The notes below the pieces were generated by a model. The model did not search any database. It was given only the letters and a program-made list of their open reading frames with translations, and was not told the origin of the DNA. The position numbers and the translations under genes were made by a program. DNA of 34,768 nt from a virus (Duplodnaviria; Caudoviricetes). Numbering within the stretch: the first letter of the stretch is position 1; each line of letters opens with the position of its first letter. The stretch is from the IMG/VR virus record IMGVR_UViG_3300025600_000039, positions 1 to 34,768 of that record. One strand, 5' to 3'. Positions 528-19,532 of this stretch are shown here, one piece after another.

Positions 528-2712
528 TTAACTACCACTCGTTTGTGCTATTTGTTGAAGTTGTTGCATCCATCCTGTTGGATTATCGCTAATCATTTTG
601 CCAATATTAATTACAAAAGTTTGACCTTTATTATTTGTAACTGTTGATTGATTATTAGTCATAGCAGGGGATAGTGTGTTCATACTTGGCATATTATTTA
701 AGTCATAGGTAGGGTTGTTTAAAATCCAATCACCTATACCAGTTTGAGCCGATTGTATTTTCTTTTGATCTGCTACTTGAACCCATTTACCATGCTCATA
801 TGATAGACCTGATTTTGTGGATTGTGCATTTACGAGGTCTTGTTCAAGGGCAAGTAAAGATTTAGATTGATTGTATTGTGCTTGAATCTCGTCAGTTTGT
901 TGTTTTTTGAGGGTATAGATTTTTTCCTCTATGGATTGACGTTCTGCAAGGAGTAGATTACCTGATAATTCTTTGGTATAATATTCTATTTGTTGTTGGA
1001 TAGACTCTGCTGTTTGCTCTTGCATTGCTACTAGATGTGATTCTGCTTGGTCGGCTGCTGTGCGTGTGTCAGTATCTATTTGTTTACGTAGACTATATAT
1101 GCGTTCTTCATAATCCCATTGTTCTTTTTCAGATATAAAATTAGCTTTACCATTTCTTATGCGGTCAAGTTCTTGTTGTGTAGTGAGTTGTCCAATTTTT
1201 TTGAGATGTTCTATTTGAGCAAGGAGGGCATCTAGGGCAGGGTTGGAAGAAGTTGTACCACCATCAGGAATAAAGTCAGTAGTAGCACCACTATCATAAT
1301 CTCCAGTTTTTGCATTTGGGTCTATTACGGAAGTTGGGTCTGATAATAATCTTTTTTGAAAATCTCCAATATCTGCTTTTGCTTTGCCCATTGTTTCTGT
1401 TGCTAATTTCCTGCTATTTATCAATTTTTGAAGATTCCGATCAATTTTAGAAGCTTCGTTGTTCATATCTAAAAAAGCATCACCACTTGCTCCAGCAGGA
1501 TTTGATTTTACATATGATGCCATTTTTGCCTTTTGTGCATCTAATTGTTTCTGCGTTTCAGTTATCTTAGAAGTTGTATCATCTATAATTTGACTTTGAT
1601 CTAAAATAGTTCCTCCAGCCGTAGCTGCTTTATCACCAGAAGCCTTAGTAATATAATATTGTTCAAGTGCCGTAATATTTTTATAAATTTCTTCTCTATT
1701 TTTACTAAGTTTTCCAGTTTCTGTATCATATTGTAGATTTAAGTTGGGCATTAATTTATTTAATTCACCAACTAATGTTAACATTTGTGTCCTTTTAGTA
1801 TTACTTTTATCCATTTCAGTTGAAAGTTTAAATATATTTTCAATTAAACTTTTAGATACTTCTGTTTCTCCCATAGATGATGTTTTTTGTTTGTCTATTG
1901 CATCAGCATTTTGTTTGTATTCATCTGTAAGAGCCTTTTCTTTAGCAATTAGATCATCAACTGTTTTTTGATAAGTTCCTGTTTTATCATTTAACATTCC
2001 AAAACCATTAGTTGCTATACTTAGTCCAGTAACAATTAATCCTATAACTATAGGTAGTCCACCCATTACAATATTCATTGTACTAAGTGCGCTAGTTGCT
2101 TCTATAATTCCAATAATCATCTTTGGTAATGCCATTGCAACTGATAAAATTGCTGTTGTTAATAATCCTGATATAACTCCTGATAAGGCAGAAATAATCA
2201 ATCTAACTCCAGTTGCACTTCCTGATAATTTTAAAAATCCTGATGCTAAATCTAATAGACCTTTCATAGCATTTGAATCTATCAATTTCATCCACATTTG
2301 TTGTGCAGCATTTTTTACATCATTCATTTTCGCTTCTATTGATGTTCCATAAGTGCCGTATCTCCGCATAGCATTTCCAGCAGAAGTTGCTTGTGTTTCT
2401 TGTTGTTGAAGGGCAACATTCATATTATTTAATAATGCGAGTAGCTGATTGCGCTGGCGTGTACCTCCAATTGCTGTTATCGCTGCATTTTGTTGTACTT
2501 GATCGAGATTTTTCCAACTTCCTGCTAATTTATTTAATACAATATTGAAGTTTTTAAATTCTCCAGATGTAGAACGAATAGCAATAGCAGCACTATTTCC
2601 ATTTTTATCTACAAGATTGTTTAATACCTTTTCTACATTATTAACTGATTCACCATTGGCATCATTTTGTGCGCCAGCTTTTACGTTTTCATATCTCGAA
2701 AATATAGAGTTA
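528..2712 (-). CDS. Tail tape measure protein, exon 2
   Basis: The frame of the 631-aa ORF stays open for 96 more codons upstream of its ATG (NSIFSRYENVKAG...IRSTSGEFKNFNIVLNKLAGSWKNL...IGGTRQRNQLLALLNN), matching the TP901-type tape measure core; hydrophobic stretch and coiled coils follow. Confidence 0.9.
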
Positions 2713-2963
2713 CCAATCTGTTACTTTTTGTGACCTATATAAATATAGGCGGTCAGAGTTCTTCGACTCTAACTCTCTCCCTTGCTAAAAATAATTATAG
2801 GAGAGTGCAGACTATCATATTATCATTATAAATGACATTCTCTTGTTTAGTCGTTCAGGCTGTATTTAAACTTGCCCCCTGTCACCCTTCTCAGAGTTTC
2901 CAAGTCAATTAAAGAGAATTTTCTTAATAGATTATTTATTATGCTATTAAGCCCCCAACATTA
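2713..2963 (-). ncRNA. ORF-less group I self-splicing intron (251 nt) in the tape measure gene
   Basis: 5' exon ends CCCU, pairing with the intron G-run via a U-G wobble (P1). Other pairings: P2 CUUAAUAG/CUAUUAAG, P3 AUUCUCUU/AAGAGAAU, P7 GACUA/UAGUC, P9.0 UCUG/CAGA, P10 GUUG with 3' exon UAAC. Terminal omega-G at 2713. Removal gives the in-frame junction ESIGTSL-NSIFSRY. Confidence 0.92.
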
Positions 2964-4597
2964 AGGGAAGTACCTATACTTTCTGGATTTTGACGAGTTA
3001 TAGAACTTATTGTTCCTATATATGAAATTAATTGTGATAGATTAACGCCAGCAGCTTGGGCAGATGAAGATGTCTTATTTAATGCCTTACTTAGTTCAGA
3101 AGTGCTAGTAGCACTTGTATTATCCACTGCAACCATTTTATCAACGACACCCATCATTTCATTTGCATTCATATGAAAGGCATTCATAATAGCTATAAGT
3201 GATTGTGCAGAATCTTGTTGGGATTGTCCAGCAATTTTACTCATTACTGTACTTGCTTGTAATAATGATGTTGTATCTTTTGAATTATTTCCAGCTCTTA
3301 AAAATTCTTCAGATGCAGTCATTATTGCAGAAGTTGTTTCATGTAATTGACTTGCTAAATTTGAATATTCTTTTGTTAGTGATACAACTTCATCTCTTGA
3401 TTTGCCTGTGATCATTTGTATATTAGTCATGGATTTATCAAGATCAGCAACAAAACTAAATGCTTGAGAAATTTGTCGAATTGTGCCGAACAAAATACCG
3501 CCTATAACCGCCCACTGAAGCATTTTTTTTCCTGCATCAAACCATGATTGTCCCATTCTTGCTGTACCAGCAGTTGTATTTTCAATCATAGGATTTAAAG
3601 TTCTTGTTTGATTTTCAATAGCTGATAGTCCCTGTGTTGCTACACTAGTTCTATTAAATAAATTTTCAAAAACAGATGCACTTTCTCTAGCAGAAGAATT
3701 TAAAGTAGAAAAATTAGCATTAGTTGCATCTAAAATACTTCTTTGTGAGTAAATTGAACTGCTATTTCCCATATATCCACTGGAATTAGGGTTGGATACG
3801 CTATTCATTTGAGCTTTATATTTTAACCACATTTCGTTTTGTAACATATCTTGTTTATTTATAGCTGATATTATTTTATTTTCGTCTTGCATCCATTTTT
3901 GGTAAGATTCTTGTTGTTGTTGTATTTGTCTGTTATACATTCTATCTACAACAAGTTCATATTTTTCTAAATATGCTGTTTTAGATTTTTCATCTTTGAT
4001 ATACTCATCATAAGTTTTTTGTTGTGCATTTTGAATCTGCTGTTCTGCTTTAATCCCTGCATTGGCTCTTGCGCCAATATTATTAGTCGTGTTATCTGTC
4101 GTTAATCCATTTGGAATAGTAGTAACTGCTTTAGTTACAAAATCATCTTGATAAGTATTAGTTTGACTACCAATCACGCCATTAGTTGATTTTATATTTT
4201 CTTTAATTAGAGTCATTTGTTGTAATGCAAGTTCTTTATTTACAGCAATTTGTCTTTGTTTGGCTTGAGTATTTTTATCAGTTTTTGTAGTATCAGTAAC
4301 TACTACTTCACCATTCCGTCTGATATCTTCAACAACCGTTTTGATACTTCCATCTAATTCTTTTGTAACTGTAATATTTTTTCTAATTGTTTCATTTTGC
4401 TGAATTAACATATTATTCATTTTATCAATTGCTTCTGAAAAATTAGTTAATTCTTTTAAAACTTTTGGATCAATATCAATTTTAAGATTAAGATGACTAA
4501 GTTTACTTGAAAGAATTTTAATCTGCTCATCTATTTGACTTTTACTTCCAACAGTATCTAATCCAGCTTTAAGTAGCATACTAAGATTACCTGCCAT
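2964..4597 (-). CDS. Tail tape measure protein, exon 1 (spliced product 1272 aa)
   Basis: TP901-family tape measure core (LDKSMTNIQMITG...EEFLRAG...VVDKMVAVDN...ELSKAL...ITRQNPESIGTSL). The stop of the called 552-aa ORF lies inside the intron. Confidence 0.92.
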
Positions 4598-5415: not shown

Positions 5416-5447
5416 AAAGACCGCTTAAATTAACAGGCGGTCTTTTT
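5416..5447. terminator. Bidirectional intrinsic terminator between converging genes
   Basis: AAAGACCGC...GCGGTCTTTTT inverted repeat, overlapping the last codons of the endonuclease gene. Confidence 0.75.
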
Positions 5448-7238
5448 AACATCTACTTTCTTAAATCCAAATTCCTTTCGATATTTAAGTCTACATTCTT
5501 GACTGCAAAATACCCAATTGTCCCTTTTTAATTTACTAGGAATTATTTCAACTTCACTATTACAACAATCGCAATTAGTTAATACTTTTTTATTTTGCAT
5601 AATTGCAGAACATTTTATGCTACAATAATGATGTTCATGTCGATTATAGTGAGATATTAATTCTTCTTTCTCATTACCACAACACTCACAATTAAAAGTT
5701 ATCCATTTATCCAATTGTTTTCTACTCATTTTTTCTTTAACGGTAGTATTAATAATTATTTTTAAATCTTCAATATCCCATTCCATATATGGTTTTATTA
5801 AATTTTCGTTTGATATAAGACTATTAGTATATGTATAATTAAAAGAATGATAATTTTTTAGAATACCTTTATTTAAAATATATTCTAAAACTAATTGACT
5901 ACAAAGTTCTGGATTATTTAATATATCATATTCCCATAAATATAAGATTTCTATATTATGATCTTTCTTAATGTTGATATGTTTTATTTTATCCATTCTA
6001 ATCCTATTAACTTGCATTGAATAGTTTATAGTTGAATAAAATCTATTATCTGTGTGCCAATATGTTCCCTGACACTCCACAATTAAATTATGTTCAGGTA
6101 AATAATTATCAACAGCACAATAATTAAATGCCTTTTCATTTATATATTTTACATTTATTTTATCAAGTATGCTATTTAATTCTCTTTGTGCTTCTGTATC
6201 AGTTCTGCCAAACGTTCCATTTTCTAACATATTTACTGCTCTTATTTGAGCAGTCTTTCTCCATTCATCTGTTTGTGATATAACTTCTGCATACCATTTT
6301 TGTCTACACTCATTTGAACAACATTTTGCACTTTCAATTTTAAATGGATTGACTAAAAATTCTTTACCACAACATATACATATTAAAGTTCTTTGTTCTA
6401 TGGATATATTTTTATTATATCCATTAGCATTTTCACCTATTAAATTTTGAGATTGCCACTTACCTTGACATTGAATTGAACACATTTTTTGAGTACAAGA
6501 TTTTAAACATTCAAATTCTTTGCCACATATTTCACATTTTCTGATCTCATGTGCTTGTTCGCTTCTAAATGTATCTGCACATTTAACACTGCAAAAATGA
6601 TTTTTCGTTTGTTTAATCTTTGATGGATTTGTAATAAATTCTTTACCACATAAATCACAATTATATTTAATTTCTCTTTTCTGTGATAATTGACTACATT
6701 TTGCTGAACAAAATTTATCTTTACCTTTATTAACCCTACTTAAACTAACATAAAAAATTTTACCGCAATACTGACAAATTTTCTCAAATTCCTTTTTATT
6801 TTGGGTTTTAATTTTTCCATTATAAGTTCCATTACATTTGTGACTACAAAAATTATTTCCATTTGTGAAATATTGATATAATTTAACATAAAAAATATTT
6901 CCACATTCTGAACAGATTTTCTCAATTTTTATAGGAATTTTACCACCAATTTTTAAATTATCTTTTAATAATCTACATAAATTATCTAAAGTTTTATTAT
7001 CTAATAATTTTTTAATTTCATTTAATGTTTTTACTTTTTTATTTAATAATTTATCTAAAATAATTCTATATTCAAAAATAGTCCAATTATTAATTATCAA
7101 TGGTTTATTACGTTTGAGATAATCACAAACTTTACATCTTAAATAAGAATATGCTCCATGACTTTTTGCTTTATTAAATTCACTAATCGGCTTTTCCTCG
7201 CCACAATCTTTACAGATTCTACTTTTAATTTCTTCCAT
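5430..7238 (-). CDS. Free-standing putative homing endonuclease: Vsr/DUF559-like PD-(D/E)XK domain flanked by many CxxC...(F)CSxxC zinc-binding repeats
   Basis: Repeated CxxCGKEF...FCSxxC units; nuclease motif VDNYLPEHNLIVECQGTYWH...DKIK...ILYLWEYDI. Confidence 0.75.
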   Translation of the reverse strand: MEEIKSRICKDCGEEKPISEFNKAKSHGAYSYLRCKVCDYLKRNKPLIINNWTIFEYRIILDKLLNKKVKTLNEIKKLLDNKTLDNLCRLLKDNLKIGGKIPIKIEKICSECGNIFYVKLYQYFTNGNNFCSHKCNGTYNGKIKTQNKKEFEKICQYCGKIFYVSLSRVNKGKDKFCSAKCSQLSQKREIKYNCDLCGKEFITNPSKIKQTKNHFCSVKCADTFRSEQAHEIRKCEICGKEFECLKSCTQKMCSIQCQGKWQSQNLIGENANGYNKNISIEQRTLICICCGKEFLVNPFKIESAKCCSNECRQKWYAEVISQTDEWRKTAQIRAVNMLENGTFGRTDTEAQRELNSILDKINVKYINEKAFNYCAVDNYLPEHNLIVECQGTYWHTDNRFYSTINYSMQVNRIRMDKIKHINIKKDHNIEILYLWEYDILNNPELCSQLVLEYILNKGILKNYHSFNYTYTNSLISNENLIKPYMEWDIEDLKIIINTTVKEKMSRKQLDKWITFNCECCGNEKEELISHYNRHEHHYCSIKCSAIMQNKKVLTNCDCCNSEVEIIPSKLKRDNWVFCSQECRLKYRKEFGFKKVDVKKTAC

Positions 7239-8246: not shown

Positions 8247-8846
8247 TTATTTATTAGGTTTTATGTAATTTTCCTTGATTTCATTAATCAAAGTGTCTAA
8301 TACATCAAATATTTCGTTAAGCAATCCATAATCGTTTACTTTAGAAACTATTTTTCTAATTTTTTCTTTAATATTTTTATCAATAAATGTAATTACATTT
8401 AAAAATTCATACTCTAAGGATTCGGAAACTTCCTTTTTAATAAGTTTGTCCAACTCATAGGTAATTACAATTTTATAATCTAATTCGATTAAATCCAAAT
8501 CATTAAGAGTTGCATTTATTTTAATTTTAGATGTGCCTTTATAAAAATCTTGTAGTTCATTTAAATCAACTGGTATAATCATATCAAGATTAATATAACT
8601 ATCAACATCAAGAAACATCGGATAGTCATCTTTTTTTAATGAAACATAATTTGGTGGAATACTTCCTTTAGTAGACAACGAACTTGCCTTTGTAATTGGG
8701 GCAACTAATACTACATCATAAGGAGTCGGTCTCTGATGTAAAACAACCACTCTATGAAATTCACATAAAACTTTTGAATCTTTTATAATCGCTGTTTTTC
8801 TCTTTGGAAAATCATAAGTGAGTAGCTGTCCTTTTTTATAACCCAA
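8247..8846 (-). CDS. PemK/MazF-like toxin-family protein with a C-terminal helical extension
   Basis: N-terminal YKKGQLLTYDFP, HRVVVL...VVLVAPIT and DSYINLDMIIPVD fit the PemK fold; about 65 extra helical residues at the C-terminus. Confidence 0.7.
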   Translation of the reverse strand: MGYKKGQLLTYDFPKRKTAIIKDSKVLCEFHRVVVLHQRPTPYDVVLVAPITKASSLSTKGSIPPNYVSLKKDDYPMFLDVDSYINLDMIIPVDLNELQDFYKGTSKIKINATLNDLDLIELDYKIVITYELDKLIKKEVSESLEYEFLNVITFIDKNIKEKIRKIVSKVNDYGLLNEIFDVLDTLINEIKENYIKPNK

Positions 8847-8868
8847 TTATTTCACCGACCTATTGTTA

Positions 8869-9042
8869 TTATTTGTCATCTAAATGTTTTGAAATTATTT
8901 TTTGCGATTGAGGTTTAATAAATTTTTTGAAAAATTTTCTTTGTGAATCAACCAATTCTTTTGGAATTTGAGATATGTCGTAATTGCATGAATATCTTTC
9001 TGTTCTTTTATTGTGTTCTCTAATTTCTAGTAAAGTATTCAT
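8869..9042 (-). CDS. Small basic protein upstream of the PemK-like gene, putative antitoxin/partner (probable start ATG 9042, 57 aa)
   Basis: AAGGAGG RBS precedes the second Met (MNTLLEIR); ends 22 nt before the toxin-like gene. Confidence 0.5.
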   Translation of the reverse strand: MNTLLEIREHNKRTERYSCNYDISQIPKELVDSQRKFFKKFIKPQSQKIISKHLDDK

Positions 9043-9338
9043 TCTCAAATCCTCCTTATTTAACCTCAATTTTTTCTTCTTACACATATTATCTCACTCC
9101 AAATCCAATAATACTTTGTAAAGATTATGGACGTTTGAAATGAGATATACACAATTTAAGAAAATAAACTTCCTTTTAGACTAACAAGCTTGTCCATAAA
9201 ACCAATTACGCAATTGATTAAAATACAGTCAAACCTTAATTTTTATACCTTGACATAATTGTCTGGATATTATAATAACATCAAACATAACTCAATACAA
9301 CACACTTACAAAAAGATTGTTAAAAATAAACAAATATA

Positions 9339-11246: not shown

Positions 11247-11804
11247 TTATCCTTCTTCTTCATCTTCACCATCAATTTCAGTATCTTCACTTACAATATC
11301 TTCAACAACTTCCAATCCCTTATTACCTATTTTGTTTTCAATTTCTGCAATCAAATTTGCATATTGCTTTACTGCTTCTGGATTTTTCTGCATCTCGTCC
11401 ATATTAGACTTAGCTCTTGCCATGAACTCATTTATTCTCTCTAACTGTGCAGGATCAAATGCTTTGAGAATCTTTTCTGCAATACCTAAATCAAACAGCA
11501 TTGTGAATAGTGCAATATCTTCTTCAAAACTTTTTGTTTCTACATTTATATCCGAGAAGTATTTTATACAAAGAAGCAAATATAGGTTTGGCACACTTAA
11601 TAAATCTTTGTAGTCAACTAAATATTGCATTTTATCTGTCAACTCATTTATAAGTTCTTGCATGGCTGTGGCTTTAAATACTGTTGAAATATTCACTACA
11701 TAATTTTCACCATTCACATCTACAGTGATTTGAGTTTGTGTAAATGTTTTTGCGTATGCTTTTTTTATTGTTGCTGGAGTTAGTTTCTTTATGGTTTGTT
11801 TCAT
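11247..11804 (-). CDS. Hypothetical protein, possible tail assembly chaperone
   Basis: Acidic helical protein with GAGGA RBS between the tail tube and tape measure genes. Confidence 0.45.
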   Translation of the reverse strand: MKQTIKKLTPATIKKAYAKTFTQTQITVDVNGENYVVNISTVFKATAMQELINELTDKMQYLVDYKDLLSVPNLYLLLCIKYFSDINVETKSFEEDIALFTMLFDLGIAEKILKAFDPAQLERINEFMARAKSNMDEMQKNPEAVKQYANLIAEIENKIGNKGLEVVEDIVSEDTEIDGEDEEEG

Positions 11805-11862
11805 ATTGTGTGTTCCTCTTTCTTTTATTTTATTTGTATTATATTTTATACTTGTTTCTACA

Positions 11863-12297
11863 CTACTTTATATCGATATAAATATCTGTTCTTACATGTT
11901 TCTTGTCATAACCACATTTGAGTGTTAAACTTTCAATATGTAAAGAATCATCATCTATTACTAATCCGCTTTCAGACATTCCGTCAAGAATGAATTTAGG
12001 AACTGTATTGTCACAGTCCTTACGAATTTTGGTTTTGAAGTAAGATATAAAAGTCATTTCACACTTGTCTATCTTTTTATTGCTTAAACCACAATCTTCT
12101 ACAAACCATACTATAAACTCTTTCCATGTCTGTTTTAACCCATTCATCATAGGTCTTTTCATTATCATCCATTTGTTAATGCTTGGATGGGTAGGTGTTT
12201 CAATAGGTATTTTTTTACGTCTTGGATTTTTCTTAAAATAGTATTTATTATACTTTTCTAAAACTGCATAATCTATTGTCAATTTTATTTGTTCCAC
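11863..12297 (-). CDS. rusA: RusA-family Holliday junction resolvase (probable start GTG 12297)
   Basis: PSIN and RKDCDNTVPKFILDGMSESGLVIDDD motifs (DxDN...K...D...DD); AAGGAGG RBS before GTG. Confidence 0.85.
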   Translation of the reverse strand: MEQIKLTIDYAVLEKYNKYYFKKNPRRKKIPIETPTHPSINKWMIMKRPMMNGLKQTWKEFIVWFVEDCGLSNKKIDKCEMTFISYFKTKIRKDCDNTVPKFILDGMSESGLVIDDDSLHIESLTLKCGYDKKHVRTDIYIDIK

Positions 12298-12374
12298 TTT
12301 TTTCCTCCTTAAATTTTTTAAACTTGTCCACACAATGCTTGTCCCACAAAATCTATGTAAATATTTCTATATAT

Positions 12375-12410
12375 TAAAAAGAACGATACATAGTTAAAAT
12401 GTATCGAACT
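12375..12410 (-). terminator. Probable terminator closing the ATPase/microprotein operon
   Basis: CGATACA/TGTATCG inverted repeat followed by UUCUUUUU on the minus strand. Confidence 0.55.
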
Positions 12411-12450
12411 TTATTGTTTTCGCTTTTAAATTGTATTGTCTAATCTATCT

Positions 12451-12603
12451 CTAATTATTTATCTGAACAAACTTTCTATTTCTGTAAGTTCTGATCCTAT
12501 CTTCCTTATCCATTAATTTCTTGTTTCTCTTAATTTTTCTTATGGCTTCGGCTGTAAAATGTATTGTGCAAATTCCAATAATATAAGTAGATATGCCTAT
12601 CAT
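12451..12603 (-). CDS. Uncalled 50-aa microprotein, hydrophobic N-terminus plus basic tail
   Basis: GAAAGAGGT RBS 7 nt before ATG; MIGISTYIIGICTIHFTAEAIRKIKRNKKLMDKEDRIRTYRNRKFVQINN. Confidence 0.65.
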   Translation of the reverse strand: MIGISTYIIGICTIHFTAEAIRKIKRNKKLMDKEDRIRTYRNRKFVQINN

Positions 12604-12646
12604 GGTTATAACCTCTTTCGTGTTTTTATTTTGGATTGATTGAATG

Positions 12647-12769
12647 TTATATAATTCTAAACCTTATATGCTTGTTTCTAAATTGTGATATATAATAACT
12701 AATAAGACCTGCTGAAGCAATCAAAATTGTTATAAGAGCAATTAAATACATTAAATCTGTTATTGTCAT
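12647..12769 (-). CDS. Uncalled 40-aa single-TM microprotein
   Basis: AGAAGG RBS; MTITDLMYLIALITILIASAGLISYYISQFRNKHIRFRII. Confidence 0.6.
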   Translation of the reverse strand: MTITDLMYLIALITILIASAGLISYYISQFRNKHIRFRII

Positions 12770-12828
12770 GTGTTTATGCCTTCTTTTTTTTGTTGGATTT
12801 TTGAATGGATGCTAAATAATTGTAAATC

Positions 12829-12933
12829 TTATAATTTTCTCTTTTTTAAATTTTTAAATATAAAACCTAACGTTACTACTTCTGTTGTGATAATAAGTAA
12901 ATTGTAAATAATTAATGCAGTTCCTGTTAACAT
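12829..12933 (-). CDS. Uncalled 34-aa single-TM microprotein
   Basis: GAAAGAGGT RBS; MLTGTALIIYNLLIITTEVVTLGFIFKNLKKRKL. Confidence 0.65.
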   Translation of the reverse strand: MLTGTALIIYNLLIITTEVVTLGFIFKNLKKRKL

Positions 12934-12977
12934 AATCAAAAACCTCTTTCAAAATAAATTTAAGAATAAACTATTTA

Positions 12978-15287
12978 CTAATCCTTTTTATAAGGTAATT
13001 TAGTTATAAATTTAGCAATTCCTCCCTCGTAATTAATCAAATTCAAGCTACTGTATTGTGGTAATACTTGCATATCTTCTAATGTATATGGATAAATCTC
13101 GTCTTTGAACTCATCAAATGAAGTCCTTGAACTTCCCTTCATCAACATGTATGACGAACCGCTGGCTTTTAACATAGGATTTATAATTCCAATTTGCTTT
13201 AAAAATTGACAACTAAATACAAATTTACAACCAAATTTTCTTGTTTGAGGTGGTATCTGTTCTTCATTTAATAATTTCATTGAAGTTGGGGCTTGGAAGA
13301 TTTCATCAACAATTATATGCATTCTTTTTGGTTGTTCATGCATATCACCTCTTGCGATAGCCACGCTCCATATTTTCGTAAGTAGATAGGTTACCAAAAT
13401 ATTTTTAGCATAAGGTGATGGAAATTCAGACTGTGGAATTTTAAATAATACAATTTTCCCATCTTCCATTGCTTTGACTAAATTAATATTATTCTCCGTT
13501 GATTTATTAAACATAACCTTCAATTTTAAATCCTTTTTAAGCAAATTAACTCTATGCTCAATGTGTTCAATTTTACTGAATTTAGTTCCAATAACTTCAC
13601 CTGCATTTTCACCTTTACCTGATCTTTCATCAAGTTCTAATAAAGCAGCTATTTCATCTTCTAAAATTTCCCTATATTCATTTGGAATTGCATCAATATA
13701 TTTATGTCTTACTTCTGGACGTTCAAGACACCTTATTACATCTCTTAGACTGGCATTAGCATCCAACATTGTTATATTACTAGCTGCTGACAAATATCTA
13801 TCCATTTGAGTTGATAAAGGTTCACCATCAACATTGATAGAATTTATTAAACTTGAAATATAAATTGCTTTCAGATTTGCAACTTCTAATAATCCACGTT
13901 TTTTATTTGGTTTTAATTCATTATATCCAATTCCTTGAGCGTCTTTTATTTGAGAAATGTCTATTTCAATTATTTTATCTGACGGCATAATTTTACGAAC
14001 TGAATCAGCTAATTCACATCCTTTGATAAAATCTATCAATATTATACCTTCATTACGTTTTTCAGCACATCTACAATAATTCTTAATAAATGTTGTTTTT
14101 CCACTTCCTTGTTCACCAATTAATACAAGAGGGAAATTACCTTGATCATAATTATCACGCAAAAATGCTTCTGTTTCAGTTCCTTTACACATGCTTTTAC
14201 CTAAACTAATATATCCTGTTTGTAATTCTTTTGGTACTTCAGTTTCGATGGTGTTTGTAGAAGAAATAAAATGATATTCTTCAAGGAGTTCTCTGGCGGG
14301 CAAACTCAATAAATTACCTGCCTCTTCACAGCAAAGTCTTAGTTTTTCCACCCCATCTATTTTATATTTTGTAAAATCAGTAACACCTTTCTTTAATTTT
14401 TTTCCCTCTAAATCATTATCAGCGGTTATACTCTTAAATGCTTCACAAGCTGAAAGTGCATTATTTGTTTGCCTTGATTTATTAGGACTTTCTGATAATA
14501 CAAGAATTTGTGTATCAATTATAATACTTTCTCTTTTTTGTTTTGTAGCAGTACATAAAGGTTTTTCATCTAAAGCAGATGTGAGTCTAAAAATGTTTGT
14601 TTCCTTTTTCATATTTTGACCTATTAGAGCAAATCCTGTATCTAATACTATATTACTAATATCTACTATAAATGTAACCATCATCTTTGCACAATACCAA
14701 AAAGACATCTTTTCAAAATCGATTGGATGATTTTCATTTAATTTTACAATAGTACCATCATAATCTTTTCTCCAATAACGTTGATTAACTGGAATAAAGT
14801 TGTAGAATATACCAACCTTTTCTCCCTCTTCAATAATATTTAAAGTGTTTAAGATACTTGCAAGAAGTGTATTTGACCTCTTGTCGGTTGCAAGGGACAT
14901 AGCATCTTCTTTACTATACACACATTTTTTTCTTGTCGCATTAATACTAAAATTTGGTAATTCATCAACTTTTTCGATTGTAATGCCCTTCCAACTGTCC
15001 AAAATTTTATCTCTGAGTAATCCCTCATAGACTTTCGGAATGATAAAATAAAAACTAACATCATTTTTCTCCATATATATATAGTAAGAAACTTTCATAG
15101 GTGCTTCAAAAAATAGTTTCCAATTATGAAATTTAACTGTTTGAAATAGATTTTTGTAAATAATAGCCATTGCTTTTGCAATTTTATCACTATTATAATT
15201 ACGAATTGACTTCATTGGCTTTAGCTTCAGATATATATATTCTGGACGAACATATTCAAAATAACTAGATAATTTCATAGCTTTCAT
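12978..15287 (-). CDS. HerA/FtsK-superfamily pumping ATPase (VirB4/VirD4/TrwB-like)
   Basis: Walker A GEQGSGKT, ILIDFIKG strand, helical insert, Walker B IIVDEIFQA, TRKFG arginine finger and FSCQ sensor; about 350-aa N-terminal region. Confidence 0.8.
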   Translation of the reverse strand: MKAMKLSSYFEYVRPEYIYLKLKPMKSIRNYNSDKIAKAMAIIYKNLFQTVKFHNWKLFFEAPMKVSYYIYMEKNDVSFYFIIPKVYEGLLRDKILDSWKGITIEKVDELPNFSINATRKKCVYSKEDAMSLATDKRSNTLLASILNTLNIIEEGEKVGIFYNFIPVNQRYWRKDYDGTIVKLNENHPIDFEKMSFWYCAKMMVTFIVDISNIVLDTGFALIGQNMKKETNIFRLTSALDEKPLCTATKQKRESIIIDTQILVLSESPNKSRQTNNALSACEAFKSITADNDLEGKKLKKGVTDFTKYKIDGVEKLRLCCEEAGNLLSLPARELLEEYHFISSTNTIETEVPKELQTGYISLGKSMCKGTETEAFLRDNYDQGNFPLVLIGEQGSGKTTFIKNYCRCAEKRNEGIILIDFIKGCELADSVRKIMPSDKIIEIDISQIKDAQGIGYNELKPNKKRGLLEVANLKAIYISSLINSINVDGEPLSTQMDRYLSAASNITMLDANASLRDVIRCLERPEVRHKYIDAIPNEYREILEDEIAALLELDERSGKGENAGEVIGTKFSKIEHIEHRVNLLKKDLKLKVMFNKSTENNINLVKAMEDGKIVLFKIPQSEFPSPYAKNILVTYLLTKIWSVAIARGDMHEQPKRMHIIVDEIFQAPTSMKLLNEEQIPPQTRKFGCKFVFSCQFLKQIGIINPMLKASGSSYMLMKGSSRTSFDEFKDEIYPYTLEDMQVLPQYSSLNLINYEGGIAKFITKLPYKKD

Positions 15288-15291
15288 ATTA

Positions 15292-15600
15292 TCACGCTTT
15301 CAAAGTAAAATTAAATACTTCAATTAACATATAGGTTAAGGAAGTAAAACCAACCCATTGGACACATCTCTTATCCTTCATAAAAGCGTAATAAATTAAT
15401 AATATTACACAAGCAAGACAAGAAACCCAAAACGCACTTTGAACTGTGCATTGCCACGCATTACTTAAAAAACCAAGTATAGCATGACCCAACTGATCCC
15501 ATATAGTAAATGTTGGAAGCTCCTTCACATTTTTTGGATCAACCCACGGAGCATAATTTTGGTTTAAAATTGTAGGTATAAAATTTCCAAAATTTAACAT
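15292..15600 (-). CDS. Small membrane protein (2 predicted TM)
   Basis: Hydrophobic segments FWVSCLACVILLIYYAF and WVGFTSLTYMLI; tightly coupled to neighbours (1-4 nt gaps). Confidence 0.7.
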   Translation of the reverse strand: MLNFGNFIPTILNQNYAPWVDPKNVKELPTFTIWDQLGHAILGFLSNAWQCTVQSAFWVSCLACVILLIYYAFMKDKRCVQWVGFTSLTYMLIEVFNFTLKA

Positions 15601-15601
15601 A

Positions 15602-16006
15602 TTATAACCCCCTAAAAATGTCGGCTATCATACGAAGCATAATTGGAACTCCAAATATTGCTGCAACAACTAATACATAAAAGAATACTTTTTTACCTAG
15701 ACTATGAGTGTCAGCATCCTTTATACTGGCTAATACATCAATTACTGCTTTTATGGAAATAATTCCAACTGAAAGACCTTGAATTGTTCCTAAAATTGTA
15801 TTACACTGTTTATTAAACCCTGATAAATTAGCTGCCACAGATATTACATCTGGATTATTTAATTGAGTTAGTTCTGTTATACCACAAGCAATTAAAATAG
15901 CTATTCCTATGGATGCAGATGTTGAAATTGGTTGTTTAACAACTGAATTTTTAAAATTTTCCCATATTTTTCCTATCCTTAAATCAATGCAAGCTGAATT
16001 TGACAT
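15602..16006 (-). CDS. TrbC/VirB2 pilin-like membrane protein
   Basis: Signal-like N-terminal hydrophobic segment, then a helical hairpin ILGTIQGLSVGIISIKAVIDVL-charged loop-VFFYVLVVAAIFGVPIML; GGAGG RBS. Confidence 0.55.
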   Translation of the reverse strand: MSNSACIDLRIGKIWENFKNSVVKQPISTSASIGIAILIACGITELTQLNNPDVISVAANLSGFNKQCNTILGTIQGLSVGIISIKAVIDVLASIKDADTHSLGKKVFFYVLVVAAIFGVPIMLRMIADIFRGL

Positions 16007-16017
16007 AATTAACCTCC

Positions 16018-16046
16018 GAATAAAATTGAATTTGGTGGGTAAACTA
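16018..16046 (+). promoter_or_regulatory. SigF/SigG-like forespore promoter candidate
   Basis: GAATA-N15-GGTAAACTA; the -10 fits GGHRARHTX and the -35 fits GHATR. Confidence 0.5.
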
Positions 16047-16080
16047 TTGATAGAACTTAAAATTGAAAGGAATGATTCAT

Positions 16081-16146
16081 ATGACAGTTTTAATTGCTTT
16101 GGCTGTATATATTGGTTGTGAAGTAGTAAAAGTATTCTGTTTATAA
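16081..16146 (+). CDS. Uncalled 21-aa hydrophobic peptide, divergent from the pilin-like gene
   Basis: GAAAGGA RBS 9 nt upstream; MTVLIALAVYIGCEVVKVFCL; alternative in-frame ATG at 16072. Confidence 0.55.
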   Translation: MTVLIALAVYIGCEVVKVFCL

Positions 16147-16297
16147 AAATAAATATTTAAAATAATGGATAAAACCTCAAGGACATGCACAAAAGGTATG
16201 TGTCAAATCATAAGCTATTAGTGAAGCGAAATCGCAGTGCAACGCGATGTAGCCACTAAGAGCTGATTGGTCTATGTCCGCCCATTTTATATATACC

Positions 16298-16567
16298 TTA
16301 AAACCCAAGTAAGTCGTTTATTGAACTAACAACATTATCTCCAATAACTTCAATATTGGAGTTATTTTTTTGCCCTTTATTTAATTCTTCCCTTATTAAT
16401 TCTTTAACCATTTCTTTTAGGTCTATATCAACTTTATTTTCCATATCTTTTCTTATGAGGGAAATAATATAGTTACTGGCATTTATTTTTGTCATTAAGA
16501 ATTGGTATACATCAAAATCTTTTTTAGTAAATGAAATAGATTTGTACTTATTATCATTTTTTAGCAT
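16298..16567 (-). CDS. ParR-like ribbon-helix-helix adaptor
   Basis: YKSISFTKKDFDVYQFL...ASNYIISLIRKDM RHH pattern; amphipathic C-terminal INDLLGF; overlaps the end of parM. Confidence 0.75.
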   Translation of the reverse strand: MLKNDNKYKSISFTKKDFDVYQFLMTKINASNYIISLIRKDMENKVDIDLKEMVKELIREELNKGQKNNSNIEVIGDNVVSSINDLLGF

Positions 16568-17477
16568 TTAGTATTTCTCCTATTCTGAGGAAGCCGTTTG
16601 CATTATCAAATATTGCATTATCTGAAATAGAAGCATTTGGTAATTTTGTATGGATTTGGCTTTCAAGCATAATTGAGCCTCCTCCTGTGAAACAAATTTT
16701 TAGATTTTTAACGTCCCAATTATATTTCTTGGCTTCATTTATGATTACATCAATATGAGAACTTAGCACATTATCAACTATATTATTTATTTCCTTATTA
16801 CTTCGATCTTTGATTACATAATCTATTTGATAATCTTGATAATTTGATGAAAAGACATTGTTAAGTTCTCGCTTTACTTTTCCTTGTAATATTGAACCTC
16901 CTTCATTAATTGTAAATGCAGATGAATTGATAATTTTTAAATTCTTTATGAGGCTGGCGTTCGTATTTAAACCGCCTATGTCGATAACTCCAAAAATTTG
17001 ATTTTCATTTTTCTTAATATCATTAAAGACATAACCTAGACTTTCTGGCAGGACTAATATATCGACTATATTAAAACGTCTATTTTCATTATTAACCTTA
17101 ATATTGATTAACTTTTCTTCCATTAAAAATTGTTTGTATTCTTCACGTTTTTCTACATTAAAAAATACAGACAATGGACAACCAGTAATAATTTTTACTT
17201 CTGCAAATCGATCTCCTATGAGATTGCTTATTGCTAAATACATTGCAAGTTTATGTTGCATTGTGGCTTTAGTGGTATCATAGCTACTATAAAAAGCATC
17301 TTCGCCTATTAAATGTCTAATTCCTTTATGTTCTAATACATATGTCTTACTATTAAATAATCCTTCTCCACTACATACTTGTGATTTTGTTTTAAAGATT
17401 AGCTTTTGAATATTCCCATTACTGTCACGCATAGTAGCCTTAGTGGAATCTTTGCCCATATCAACTGCTATTATCAT
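16554..17477 (-). CDS. parM: ParM/StbA actin-like segregation ATPase
   Basis: Actin-fold motifs AVDMGKDSTK, VLPES, IDIGGLNTN, FTGGG, DNANGF. Confidence 0.9.
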   Translation of the reverse strand: MIIAVDMGKDSTKATMRDSNGNIQKLIFKTKSQVCSGEGLFNSKTYVLEHKGIRHLIGEDAFYSSYDTTKATMQHKLAMYLAISNLIGDRFAEVKIITGCPLSVFFNVEKREEYKQFLMEEKLINIKVNNENRRFNIVDILVLPESLGYVFNDIKKNENQIFGVIDIGGLNTNASLIKNLKIINSSAFTINEGGSILQGKVKRELNNVFSSNYQDYQIDYVIKDRSNKEINNIVDNVLSSHIDVIINEAKKYNWDVKNLKICFTGGGSIMLESQIHTKLPNASISDNAIFDNANGFLRIGEILNAKK

Positions 17478-17683
17478 CTAACTCAACCTCTCTTGTTTAC
17501 TTTATATTTCATTATACGAGAATTTGCTGTTTATGTTACATATGTTAGAAAATAAATGATTTATTTGTCATAAATATTTTATTTTCTAATACCGCTTTTA
17601 TTTTCTCTTGAATACCCTCTGCTTTCAAAGGACATTCGACAAAAATTAAAATGAAATCAATGTTTTGTTGTAATATTGCATTA

Positions 17684-17716
17684 AAAATAAACCGACTTGC
17701 ATACACAAATCGGCTA
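17684..17716 (-). terminator. Intrinsic terminator downstream of the lysis cassette
   Basis: GCCGAUUUG-UGUAUG-CAAGUCGGU followed by UUAUUUUU. Confidence 0.65.
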
Positions 17717-17901
17717 TTTCTTTGCTATTCTTTTGCTAATTCTTTGCTATTGTGTAAATAGTTCCCTTAACTGATTTAAATATCCCAAACCTAAGATTTC
17801 TAAACAACCTATAACATTTGAAAAATTTAGATATTCTTTTTTTGAATTGATTTATAATATATCACCAATCTTTGCTATTAATTTGCTATTGTTTTGTCAT
17901 T
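17713..17901. repeat. Two clusters of TTTGCTATT-like direct repeats with 11-bp period (parC-like centromere candidate)
   Basis: Copies at 17721, 17732, 17743 (plus a partial at 17713) and 17871, 17882, 17893; upstream of parM-parR. Confidence 0.7.
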
Positions 17902-17910
17902 CTTTTATCA

Positions 17911-18348
17911 TTAAACCTTATTTGGATCAGATGGATTATTAATTATTCCCAATGCCGACATGGCAATCAAAACAAGATTAATTGCACTATCTTGATATGG
18001 AATTTCAATTTTTAATGAATATTTTAATACTAAACAAATCAATGTAAAAACTGACCCCCATAATATCCAACTTTTAAATCTATTTTGAGTTACTGGAATT
18101 TCTGTTGGTGTAGCATTAGTTACCCCTTGTGCTACTTGATGTAAAACATCTATTACTTGTGGTATTGCTTCCTCAATTACATTCGCTGTTGCCTGTGCAA
18201 CCTGTTCGATTGGTGTTTCTATTGGTGTGTTTGCCTCTACAACTTCTACTGGTGTTGCTACTTCGGTTACTTGATTTGTAGGTGCTATTATTTCTATTGG
18301 TGTTGGTACTTGAACTTCTACTGGTGCGTTTACGTTTTGTTCGTCCAT
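17911..18348 (-). CDS. Holin with a long acidic low-complexity N-terminal extension
   Basis: C-terminal two-TM domain NRFKSWILW...ALGIINNPS typical of phi LC3-like holins; directly follows the endolysin. Confidence 0.75.
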   Translation of the reverse strand: MDEQNVNAPVEVQVPTPIEIIAPTNQVTEVATPVEVVEANTPIETPIEQVAQATANVIEEAIPQVIDVLHQVAQGVTNATPTEIPVTQNRFKSWILWGSVFTLICLVLKYSLKIEIPYQDSAINLVLIAMSALGIINNPSDPNKV

Positions 18349-18434
18349 AATATTATCTTCTTTCTTAAATTATTTTATTTTTAATATTTAATTACTTTAT
18401 AATCTCCACTGTTCATATAATCACCTATTATAGC

Positions 18435-19532
18435 CTATACCTTTTTAGCTTCTTTGATATAAATCCACCCTGTTATTGCTTTACCAACACCTACAAGAAT
18501 ACGGTCGGTTTTAACCTGCAACACATCATATGTGCGTAGTTTCGCCCAAAAAGGAATATTTTCACCTGTTATATATTTCTTGCCTGTCATTTTAATTTTG
18601 CTTCCAACTTTAATTGATGGTACAACTGGTTTTGCTGCTGCTACTGGTTTAACGACTGGTGGTGGAGTAGCAACAGAATTTACAACTGTCACATCACATA
18701 TCTTAACCCAGCTCATAATACCACTCAATAAAACTTTGTCACTTGCAGTCTGACTTACGGTATAAACTGAACCCTTGACAAAACTTGCCATATCCTCACC
18801 AGTTGCATATTTTTGAGCAGTTGGGTTTACTTTGACTTTTGTGCCAACCGCAATTGTAGGAGATGAAGTAGAAACAGGTTGTGGAATAGGTTTAACAACT
18901 ACTGGTTGTACTACAACTGGTTGTATATTTGAATTAATAGTAGTAGTTGAATAATCTTTATATGCTATATCCATATCAACATTACCAATAATACCATCAA
19001 CTTTACCAACATTAGTATATTGCCAAATACCTATATTACCTTTATATGTAGGTGAATTTCCCCATTCGGCAAGCCATAAATCAAACCTACCAAGAATAGA
19101 CATATCAAGTCTATTTTTAATCCAATCAAGACTTGCATACATCATGGTATAATAACCTGCTTTTTCAACTATTCCACAAAATGTTAATGCAATTTGAGTA
19201 AGTTCCGAATTACTAAGATGTTTTTGACTTTCATCCTCAATATCAAACATAACTGGATATTCAAACTTTTTTCCAGTAATATTATCAAGGAAAAATTTTG
19301 CTTCTAATTTTGCATCTTCTACATTTTGAGCATAACTATAATGGTATGTCCCAATCGGCATACCATTTTGTTTAGCTTTAATATAATTATTTTCAAATTG
19401 CTTATCCTTTTGAGAAGTATTCTTTCCATATCCAGAACGGATAATTGCAAATTGTATTCCTGAATTTTTAACTTTATTCCAATCAATTACTCCTTGAAAT
19501 TCTGAAACATCAATACCTTTTAATTGCACCAT
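18435..19532 (-). CDS. Endolysin: GH25 muramidase, Pro/Val linker and two SH3-like wall-binding repeats
   Basis: GIDVSEFQG, FDIE, WQYT, VDMD motifs; two VG(T/S)K(V/I)K...KY.TGE...(S/G)W repeats. Confidence 0.92.
   Translation of the reverse strand: MVQLKGIDVSEFQGVIDWNKVKNSGIQFAIIRSGYGKNTSQKDKQFENNYIKAKQNGMPIGTYHYSYAQNVEDAKLEAKFFLDNITGKKFEYPVMFDIEDESQKHLSNSELTQIALTFCGIVEKAGYYTMMYASLDWIKNRLDMSILGRFDLWLAEWGNSPTYKGNIGIWQYTNVGKVDGIIGNVDMDIAYKDYSTTTINSNIQPVVVQPVVVKPIPQPVSTSSPTIAVGTKVKVNPTAQKYATGEDMASFVKGSVYTVSQTASDKVLLSGIMSWVKICDVTVVNSVATPPPVVKPVAAAKPVVPSIKVGSKIKMTGKKYITGENIPFWAKLRTYDVLQVKTDRILVGVGKAITGWIYIKEAKKV

Follow-up and report, generated by a model that had tools for sequence, protein, structure and literature searches.

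A ParMRC-type partition unit joined to a pilin-like/VirB4-like cassette in phages of spore-forming bacteria, and its possible part in delivering phage DNA into the forespore

The window—by which we mean the whole stretch of 34,768 nucleotides of viral DNA analysed here—carries a composite block in which a ParMRC partition unit is joined to a cassette of two pilin-like proteins and a VirB4-like ATPase. The core of this cassette consists of a ribbon-helix-helix (RHH)-type adaptor, a pilin-like protein with a signal-peptide-like leader, a second pilin-like protein and the ATPase, and the window holds a relaxase-less, clostridial-type variant of it with ParMRC. The cassette as such is already known from SPP1 and from 0305phi8-36/SPO1, where the passages that describe it (PMC6316719, PMC3357382) present it as nonessential for plaques and assign it no function. 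What is new here is a host pattern linked to spoIIGA, antisense motifs of sporulation type, a peptide open reading frame (ORF) and a covarying hairpin. Our leading reading, tentative and in our estimate a little short of an even chance, is that the cassette works in sporulation as a conduit carrying phage DNA to the forespore, in which it is afterwards shut off.

The record is a phage late region with terminase, portal, head, tail, endolysin, tyrosine recombinase and tape-measure genes, which we take from the gene order to be of SPbeta-like type, and its sequence was reproduced without differences in contigs of two possible source runs from a peat metagenome. The block lies on the minus strand, with endolysin/holin-like genes on one side and a RusA-like gene on the other. 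As the earlier note had it, terminator-like sites bound the block, and parC-like repeats, parM, parR, a pilin-like gene and the gene for a 769-aa ATPase are all present; the genes lie on the minus strand. The features are as follows.

17708-17751 and 17869-17901, no strand assigned: two direct-repeat arrays with an 11-bp period, seen in the sequence; a candidate parC-like centromere that ParR would bind
17715-17690, minus strand: terminator-like hairpin at the boundary between the lysis genes and parM
17477-16554, minus strand: ParM-type actin, 307 aa (ALP_N, PHROG 691)
16567-16298, minus strand: ParR-like adaptor, 89 aa, with an RHH fold predicted from its sequence pattern
16339-16361, plus strand: terminator-like site in the 3' end of parR, which would end antisense transcripts
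16181-16264, plus strand: sigmaE-like two-box motif (16181-16216), then a hairpin (16213-16264)
16081-16146, plus strand: hydrophobic ORF of 21 aa that diverges from the pilin gene and has a ribosome-binding site; absent from the earlier note
16018-16046, plus strand: sigmaF/G-like promoter, its -35 box 11 nt upstream of the pilin start, facing away
16006-15602, minus strand: major pilin-like protein (VirB2/TrbC-like by indirect family assignment), 134 aa
15600-15292, minus strand: second pilin-like membrane protein, 102 aa (hhalign to the pilin family)
15287-12978, minus strand: VirB4-like ATPase of the HerA/FtsK superfamily, 769 aa (PHROG 5156, 1e-90; fold matches)
12451-12939, minus strand: three short ORFs of 36, 40 and 50 aa, probably locus-specific passengers
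12384-12406, no strand assigned: bidirectional terminator-like hairpin at the end of the block

The ATPase has a Walker A motif at residue 391 and a Walker B motif. An AlphaFold model built from 61 sequences (pLDDT 90) drew full-length TrwK/VirB4 as its top Foldseek matches, and in VIA VirB4 came first (Z 28.8, rmsd 3.2, 338 aligned), with DndH, TrwB and HerA ranked below it. Because TrwB, DndH and HerA also score high, the subfamily call leans on the full-length TrwK alignment, by which the modelled protein is VirB4-like. Searching PDB sequences with profiles of the ATPase, the pilin and the second pilin brought up nothing beyond weak P-loop or chance matches. With the ATPase as query, tblastn found 112 phage and 54 plasmid records, including SPP1 gp32, CP-51, PBC1 and Tsamsa, and a search with the SPP1-type protein added SPO1 gp27.4, SP-10, TP-84, Basilisk and 0305phi8-36. 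The window ATPase is homologous to SPP1 gp32 (21-22% identity over the full length), SPO1 gp27.4 and 0305phi8-36 gp201.

The two membrane genes upstream bear out their earlier descriptions in part. The one called a VirB2/TrbC-like pilin is indeed pilin-like—its product has a leader with a signal-peptide-like end, followed by a helical hairpin—and its family assignment is indirect: the window protein has no Pfam match, a single weak TrbC match occurs among 51 homologues, and the positional equivalents in other loci match TrbC or T4SS_pilin. Atlas leads for the window pilin stood at 0.85-0.86. A fold search with its model was uninformative, the best Z being 7.9 with unrelated helical proteins tied with pilins, and the comparison with the R388 pilin (Z 7.3, rmsd 3.1, 69 aligned) was likewise tied with unrelated helical proteins. 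The gene listed as a "2-TM protein" does encode a membrane protein, whose actual identity is that of a pilin paralogue: hhalign relates it to the pilin family at 62% (E 7e-5) and to the version fused to M23 at 96%. That N-terminal M23 peptidase domain is found in the second pilin of many Bacillus loci and is absent in the window. As for the three ORFs downstream, put forward as single-TM microproteins and as part of the system, two pass a simple hydropathy test and the 50-aa one fails it; we rejected their membership in the system, since the ORFs of 150 loci contain no homologue of any of them and the small hydrophobic ORFs that lie 3' of the ATPase in 21 of 90 loci are unrelated.

To place the window among its relatives, we gathered loci from viral contigs, GTDB genomes and annotated records; 146 had the ATPase, and 106 were kept as having a distinct ATPase of at least 500 aa and at least 3.2 kb of upstream sequence. 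The pilin is present in 94 of these, the second pilin in 86, an RHH-type gene in 75 and M23 in 27, and the cassette is thus conserved as a unit. Many carrier loci adjoin an integrase or recombinase. A relaxase is adjacent to the ATPase in 3 of the 106 loci, and a same-strand protein with at least four TM segments lies near it in 6; the order ATPase then relaxase is seen in SPO1, CP-51, Tsamsa and 0305phi8-36. The window, a 35-kb fragment, has no MobC-like relaxase, and the absence of relaxase, VirB6 and VirB8 from the block agrees with a scan of 41 window proteins that gave no match to any of these families. No match to TrbL or VirD4 was obtained from five larger genomes of related phages, three of them at least 90% complete.

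The actin of the partition unit matches Pfam ALP_N (E 8e-18) and PHROG 691 (3e-46), with NCBIfam PRK13917 below the cut-off; it has the actin phosphate and adenosine motifs, and it stands between an upstream repeat array and a small adaptor gene directly 3' of parM, the arrangement of a ParMRC system. The ParR-like adaptor belongs to the same family as SPP1 gp31. Across the 106 loci, ParM occurs in 44, in 42 of them on the same strand, and 30 of these 42 have the RHH gene immediately after it; tubulin occupies the ParM slot in 4 loci, and in 64 the same-strand upstream slot is without ParM. On a FastTree phylogeny of the ATPase, the presence of ParM changes 21 times or more, by gain or loss (shuffled mean 33, minimum 28), and we conclude that a filament joins the cassette time and again but is optional. 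An obligate coupling to ParM was rejected on the basis of the loci that lack it and of this repeated gain and loss, and the view that ParMRC is integral to the cassette is not supported. Divergence over 36 loci correlates about equally for ATPase and ParM (rho 0.29) and for ATPase and pilin (0.30), a comparison confounded by host kinship. The SPO1 and CP-51 cassettes have ParM and its adaptor placed between pilin and ATPase, with a relaxase after the ATPase.

Several known systems resemble the block in part. The gp31/gp31.1/gp31.2/gp32 genes of SPP1 and their GBK2 counterpart share with the window the ATPase homology and the order RHH, membrane, membrane, ATPase, whereas ParM and the parC-like repeats are found only in the window. 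Passages of Godinho et al. 2018 (PMC6316719) describe gp32 as nonessential and TrwB/VirB4/FtsK-like, possibly forming a translocon with gp31.1 and gp31.2, and place the region within the early PE5 unit; these passages name no pilin, and the word "sporulation" is absent from the paper. The "DNA translocation operon" of 0305phi8-36 (orf200-207) and SPO1 (27.3-29.1), described in passages of Pathria et al. 2012 (PMC3357382) as including a MobC-like relaxase, an ATPase and an actin, groups together, as the window does, an actin, a small adaptor, a gene for a pilin-like protein and an ATPase of the same family, but has a MobC-like relaxase that the window clade lacks. According to the same passages its deletion has no plaque phenotype and a role in biofilm transfer was proposed; neither "spore" nor "sporulat" occurs in the paper, and its VirB6 call for orf203 of 0305phi8-36 was not reproduced by Pfam. 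With these two cassettes in print (PMC6316719, PMC3357382, in the passages just cited), the system, put forward in the earlier note as a candidate undescribed one, is not undescribed. With the VirB2-VirB3-VirB4 core of conjugative T4SS (R388 Trw; Gram-positive MPF), the window shares the VirB4-like fold, the gene order and the pilin-like hairpin; unlike those systems it is without VirB6, VirB8, coupling protein and relaxase, and the VirB3 slot holds the second pilin-like protein. The AlfA and TubZ type II/III partition systems have in common with it an actin, a small adaptor and repeats, as well as an interchange of actin and tubulin in one slot; in the phages, by contrast, the adaptor is joined to a membrane cassette and persists without ParM or tubulin in 43 of the 106 loci. 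Both AlfA and TubZ raise plasmid retention through sporulation, as part of PMC4615649 relates.

The host range points to spore formers. All 112 phage records are named for Bacillus, Geobacillus, Lysinibacillus, Brevibacillus, Clostridium or Terrisporobacter, or are phage D6E, whereas a control search of the same collection with the window endolysin (331 records) returned Lactobacillus 42, Lactococcus 35, Streptococcus 27 and Enterococcus 24 times. Among 401 genomes from the class of a Bacillus genome, with two candidates scored per genome and kinship and genome size left uncorrected, the ATPase was present in 24 of 270 spoIIGA-positive and 0 of 131 spoIIGA-negative genomes (Fisher p 1.2e-4 without the seed genome). 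These two results uphold the expectation that the cassette belongs to phages of spore formers; the restriction may stem in part from kinship and genome size. Where the phylum was resolved, 51 of 52 genome loci were Bacillota and 1 a Cetobacterium MAG, and the SPP1-type search had a single outlier, a record named Microcystis phage.

A second line of evidence comes from the space around the pilin start. The consensus patterns for sigmaF/G and sigmaE were partly checked against passages of PMC3789822 and PMC517825, the sigmaF/G one being broadly in line with the former, and both motif patterns were set after seeing the loci to which the following counts refer. Upstream of the pilin and within 90 nt of it, a sigmaF/G-like motif lies antisense in 31 of 107 distinct loci and sense in 1, compared with 13 of 640 control genes, and a hydrophobic ORF of 14-32 aa with a ribosome-binding site is found there in 50 of the 107 loci compared with 11 of the 640. 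The peptide ORF is present in 29 of the 31 loci with the sigmaF/G motif. With two boxes at consensus spacing and local enrichment, the sigmaF/G-like site is, to judge from its sequence, a promoter, so that the SigF-like promoter of the earlier note stands; its role as a driver of the cassette does not, since it lies on the plus strand and is directed away from the pilin toward the 21-aa ORF. The sigmaE-like motif is antisense in 36 of 107 loci and sense in 2, and motifs of sporulation type are accordingly conserved at the cassette. Either motif occurs in 63 of the 107 loci, both in 4 and neither in 44; the window carries both. Over all 45 oriented cases, 39 motifs are antisense and 6 sense.

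The sigmaE/sigmaK consensus pairs a CATAnnnT -10 box with ATA (sigmaE) or AC (sigmaK) at -35. The sigmaE-like motif fits in its CATAnnnT -10 box and spacing, and an ATA at -35 is found in a minority of 39 aligned copies, set against the consensus in a passage of PMC3789822. In a blind check, an exact pattern scan with this motif over 2.9 million viral contigs gave 32 matches, of which 24 had the ATPase or pilin within 4 kb, and among the 22 matches at previously unused loci the count was 14. Of the remaining 8 matches, 4 had a ParM or RHH gene and 4 had nothing. The -10-like box already contains the start of the adjoining hairpin's stem. Twenty Bacillus-type copies, picked by hand, show 97.5% of cells paired and covariation at 5 of 6 pairs, and across 42 copies the hairpin is strand specific, with 92 extra G.T pairs on the motif strand versus 14 on the opposite one. 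Over the same 42 copies, the motif strand has 27 CS-6-like words (WAGCG), as against 13 on its complement and 4.4 in shuffled sequence; words of this kind are found in single-strand origins, as noted in part of PMC10378824, which together with parts of PMC4595007 served for comparison with single-strand origins and oriT. The window hairpin, folded as DNA, has a z of -4.2. A transcript from the sigmaE-like promoter would omit the base of the stem, and for this reason we considered that the motif-hairpin may act as single-stranded DNA (sso- or oriT-like) rather than RNA. It bears no likeness by eye to the pTA1060 sso, and Rfam gave no match across 11800-18500. Transcription of the hairpin from a sigmaF promoter inside the pilin gene was also considered and rejected, such a promoter being found in 1 of 32 sigmaE-only loci.

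In forespore delivery, ParM (tubulin in relatives) would drive the genome, bound by the RHH protein, toward the septum or a cell pole. An ATPase hexamer would use the major pilin, once processed, and the minor pilin to build a short conduit in the septal or engulfing membranes; in Bacillus versions, the M23 domain would open the thin septal wall. The ATPase would then pump phage DNA from the mother cell into the forespore, possibly as a single strand, given that SPO1-type versions have a MobC-like relaxase and that the hairpin is strand specific. The copy reaching the forespore would fire the sigmaF/G promoter across the pilin leader, stopping pilin synthesis there, and the membrane peptide of about 20 aa made in the forespore would block back-transfer; the target of the sigmaE-like element would be the copy in the mother cell. 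This reading is favored by the conserved core, the VirB4-like fold, the host pattern, the motifs, the blind scan, the covarying hairpin and the relaxase-bearing relatives, as well as by the lack of a vegetative plaque phenotype (passages of PMC6316719 and PMC3357382) and the AlfA/TubZ precedent (part of PMC4615649). Against it stand the low counts of channel-like neighbors (6 of 106) and adjacent relaxases (3 of 106), the early expression in SPP1 (passages of PMC6316719), the 44 of 107 loci with neither motif and the optional status of ParM. Most motifs face away from the cassette, so its expression in sporulation is not implied, and a prophage integrated in the chromosome would be carried into the spore along with it anyway. 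A bolder version is doubtful, though not far-fetched: phages of spore formers, SPP1 and SPO1 included, would encode a T4SS-derived injection machine (pilin plus VirB4) that works across the sporulation septum, is steered by the filament, takes its direction from a forespore peptide and a mother-cell hairpin, and makes virospores actively.

It is also conceivable, if unlikely, that the cassette serves vegetative growth, either by anchoring replicating phage DNA to the membrane or by keeping superinfecting DNA out, and that the antisense sporulation promoters do no more than turn it off in sporulation, with ParMRC an independent neighbor in the lysogeny region. The antisense orientation of 39 of the 45 oriented motifs, the early expression of the SPP1 region (passages of PMC6316719), the 21 or more gains and losses of ParM and the lack of a channel or relaxase in most loci all fit it. 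However, it leaves unexplained why the cassette is absent from phages of non-spore formers, why a peptide ORF is conserved behind the sigmaF/G motif, why M23 is fused to the second pilin and why ParM and a relaxase share one operon in SPO1 and CP-51, and the deletion without plaque phenotype (passages of PMC3357382) tells against it. Less probable again is the proposal of Pathria et al., namely, a minimal conjugation-like transfer of phage DNA between neighboring cells, for example in biofilms; VirB2-like, VirB4-like, MobC-like and M23 parts fit it, as does a strand-specific hairpin whose CS-6-like words resemble those of single-strand origins (part of PMC10378824), yet VirB6, VirB8, a coupling protein and an adhesin are missing, and such transfer predicts neither the restriction to spore formers nor compartment-specific promoter motifs. 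Spore addiction, in which the pilin/ATPase machine would damage or arrest forespores and a forespore-made peptide would protect only those that inherit the element, is similarly improbable: the filament partner and the versions with a relaxase suggest DNA handling, the ORF test used finds no peptide in over half of the loci, and lytic phages such as SPP1 and SPO1 carry the cassette.

If forespore delivery is true, this would be a T4SS-derived device acting between two compartments of one cell, with a bearing on the persistence of prophages and plasmids in the spores of bacilli and clostridia. Entrapment of phage genomes in spores has long been known. Part of one report (10.1101/2021.11.12.468384) deals with it together with phage-borne sigF and sigG homologues; the literature searched contained no phage-encoded machine for spore entrapment, and no report of a link between the cassette and sporulation, of the peptide ORF or of the hairpin element. 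The host pattern and the forespore- and mother-cell-type motifs mark sporulation as the setting where a phenotype would be expected. The SPP1-like phages and PBC1 carry the motif-hairpin in sense orientation, upstream of the RHH gene, with a terminator-like hairpin behind it.

In many viral contigs the ATPase stop codon is no more than a few hundred bases from the contig end (loci L010, L018, L020, L030, L055, L060, L067, L076, and others), and in other cases the next gene downstream is often one for a serine or tyrosine recombinase; the cassette thus tends to lie at the prophage edge. Large clostridial plasmids typed as non-mobilizable also carry the cassette, or just its pilin and ATPase (L004, C. 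tetani plasmid; L089, C. botulinum pCLK; L005, C. beijerinckii plasmid), and in SP-10, CP-51, and SPO1 phage sigma-factor genes are found a few kilobases or less from it (within-locus coordinates L091:2816-3683, L086:10965-11609, and L090:10118-10795, respectively).

Composition varies among relatives. The second pilin-like protein bears an M23 peptidase as an N-terminal fusion, with a TM segment, in 26 of the 106 loci retained (for example, L014:9132-9779, L021:9320-10000, and L006:5790-6512, among further loci), and these fusions have no evident signal peptide. The slot held by ParM in the window is taken in L023, L026, L050, and L062 by a tubulin/FtsZ-family gene, ∼2.1 to 2.3 kb upstream of the ATPase. 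In Bacillus phage G, the adjoining ATPases gp155 and gp156 each match the ATPase model and are possibly a VirB4/coupling-protein pair; for the phiCp-D ATPase (L002:6974-9389), two ORFs are annotated, which suggests a frameshift or split gene.

Other genes of the window are as follows:

528-4597 (-), tape-measure-like gene, in two ORFs (2939-4597 and 528-2423) separated by 515 bases
5430-7238 (-), protein of 602 aa in which HNH/zinc-finger-like matches recur
8247-9087 (-), two ORFs of 72 and 199 aa
17911-18348 (-), holin-like gene

The 602-aa protein is probably a homing endonuclease. Neither the 72-aa nor the 199-aa ORF gave family matches; the 199-aa protein, which on visual inspection appears PemK/MazF-like, possibly forms a toxin-antitoxin pair with its 72-aa neighbor. 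In the holin-like protein, a long, low-complexity N terminus rich in Pro, Thr, Val, and Glu precedes the C-terminal holin-like part.
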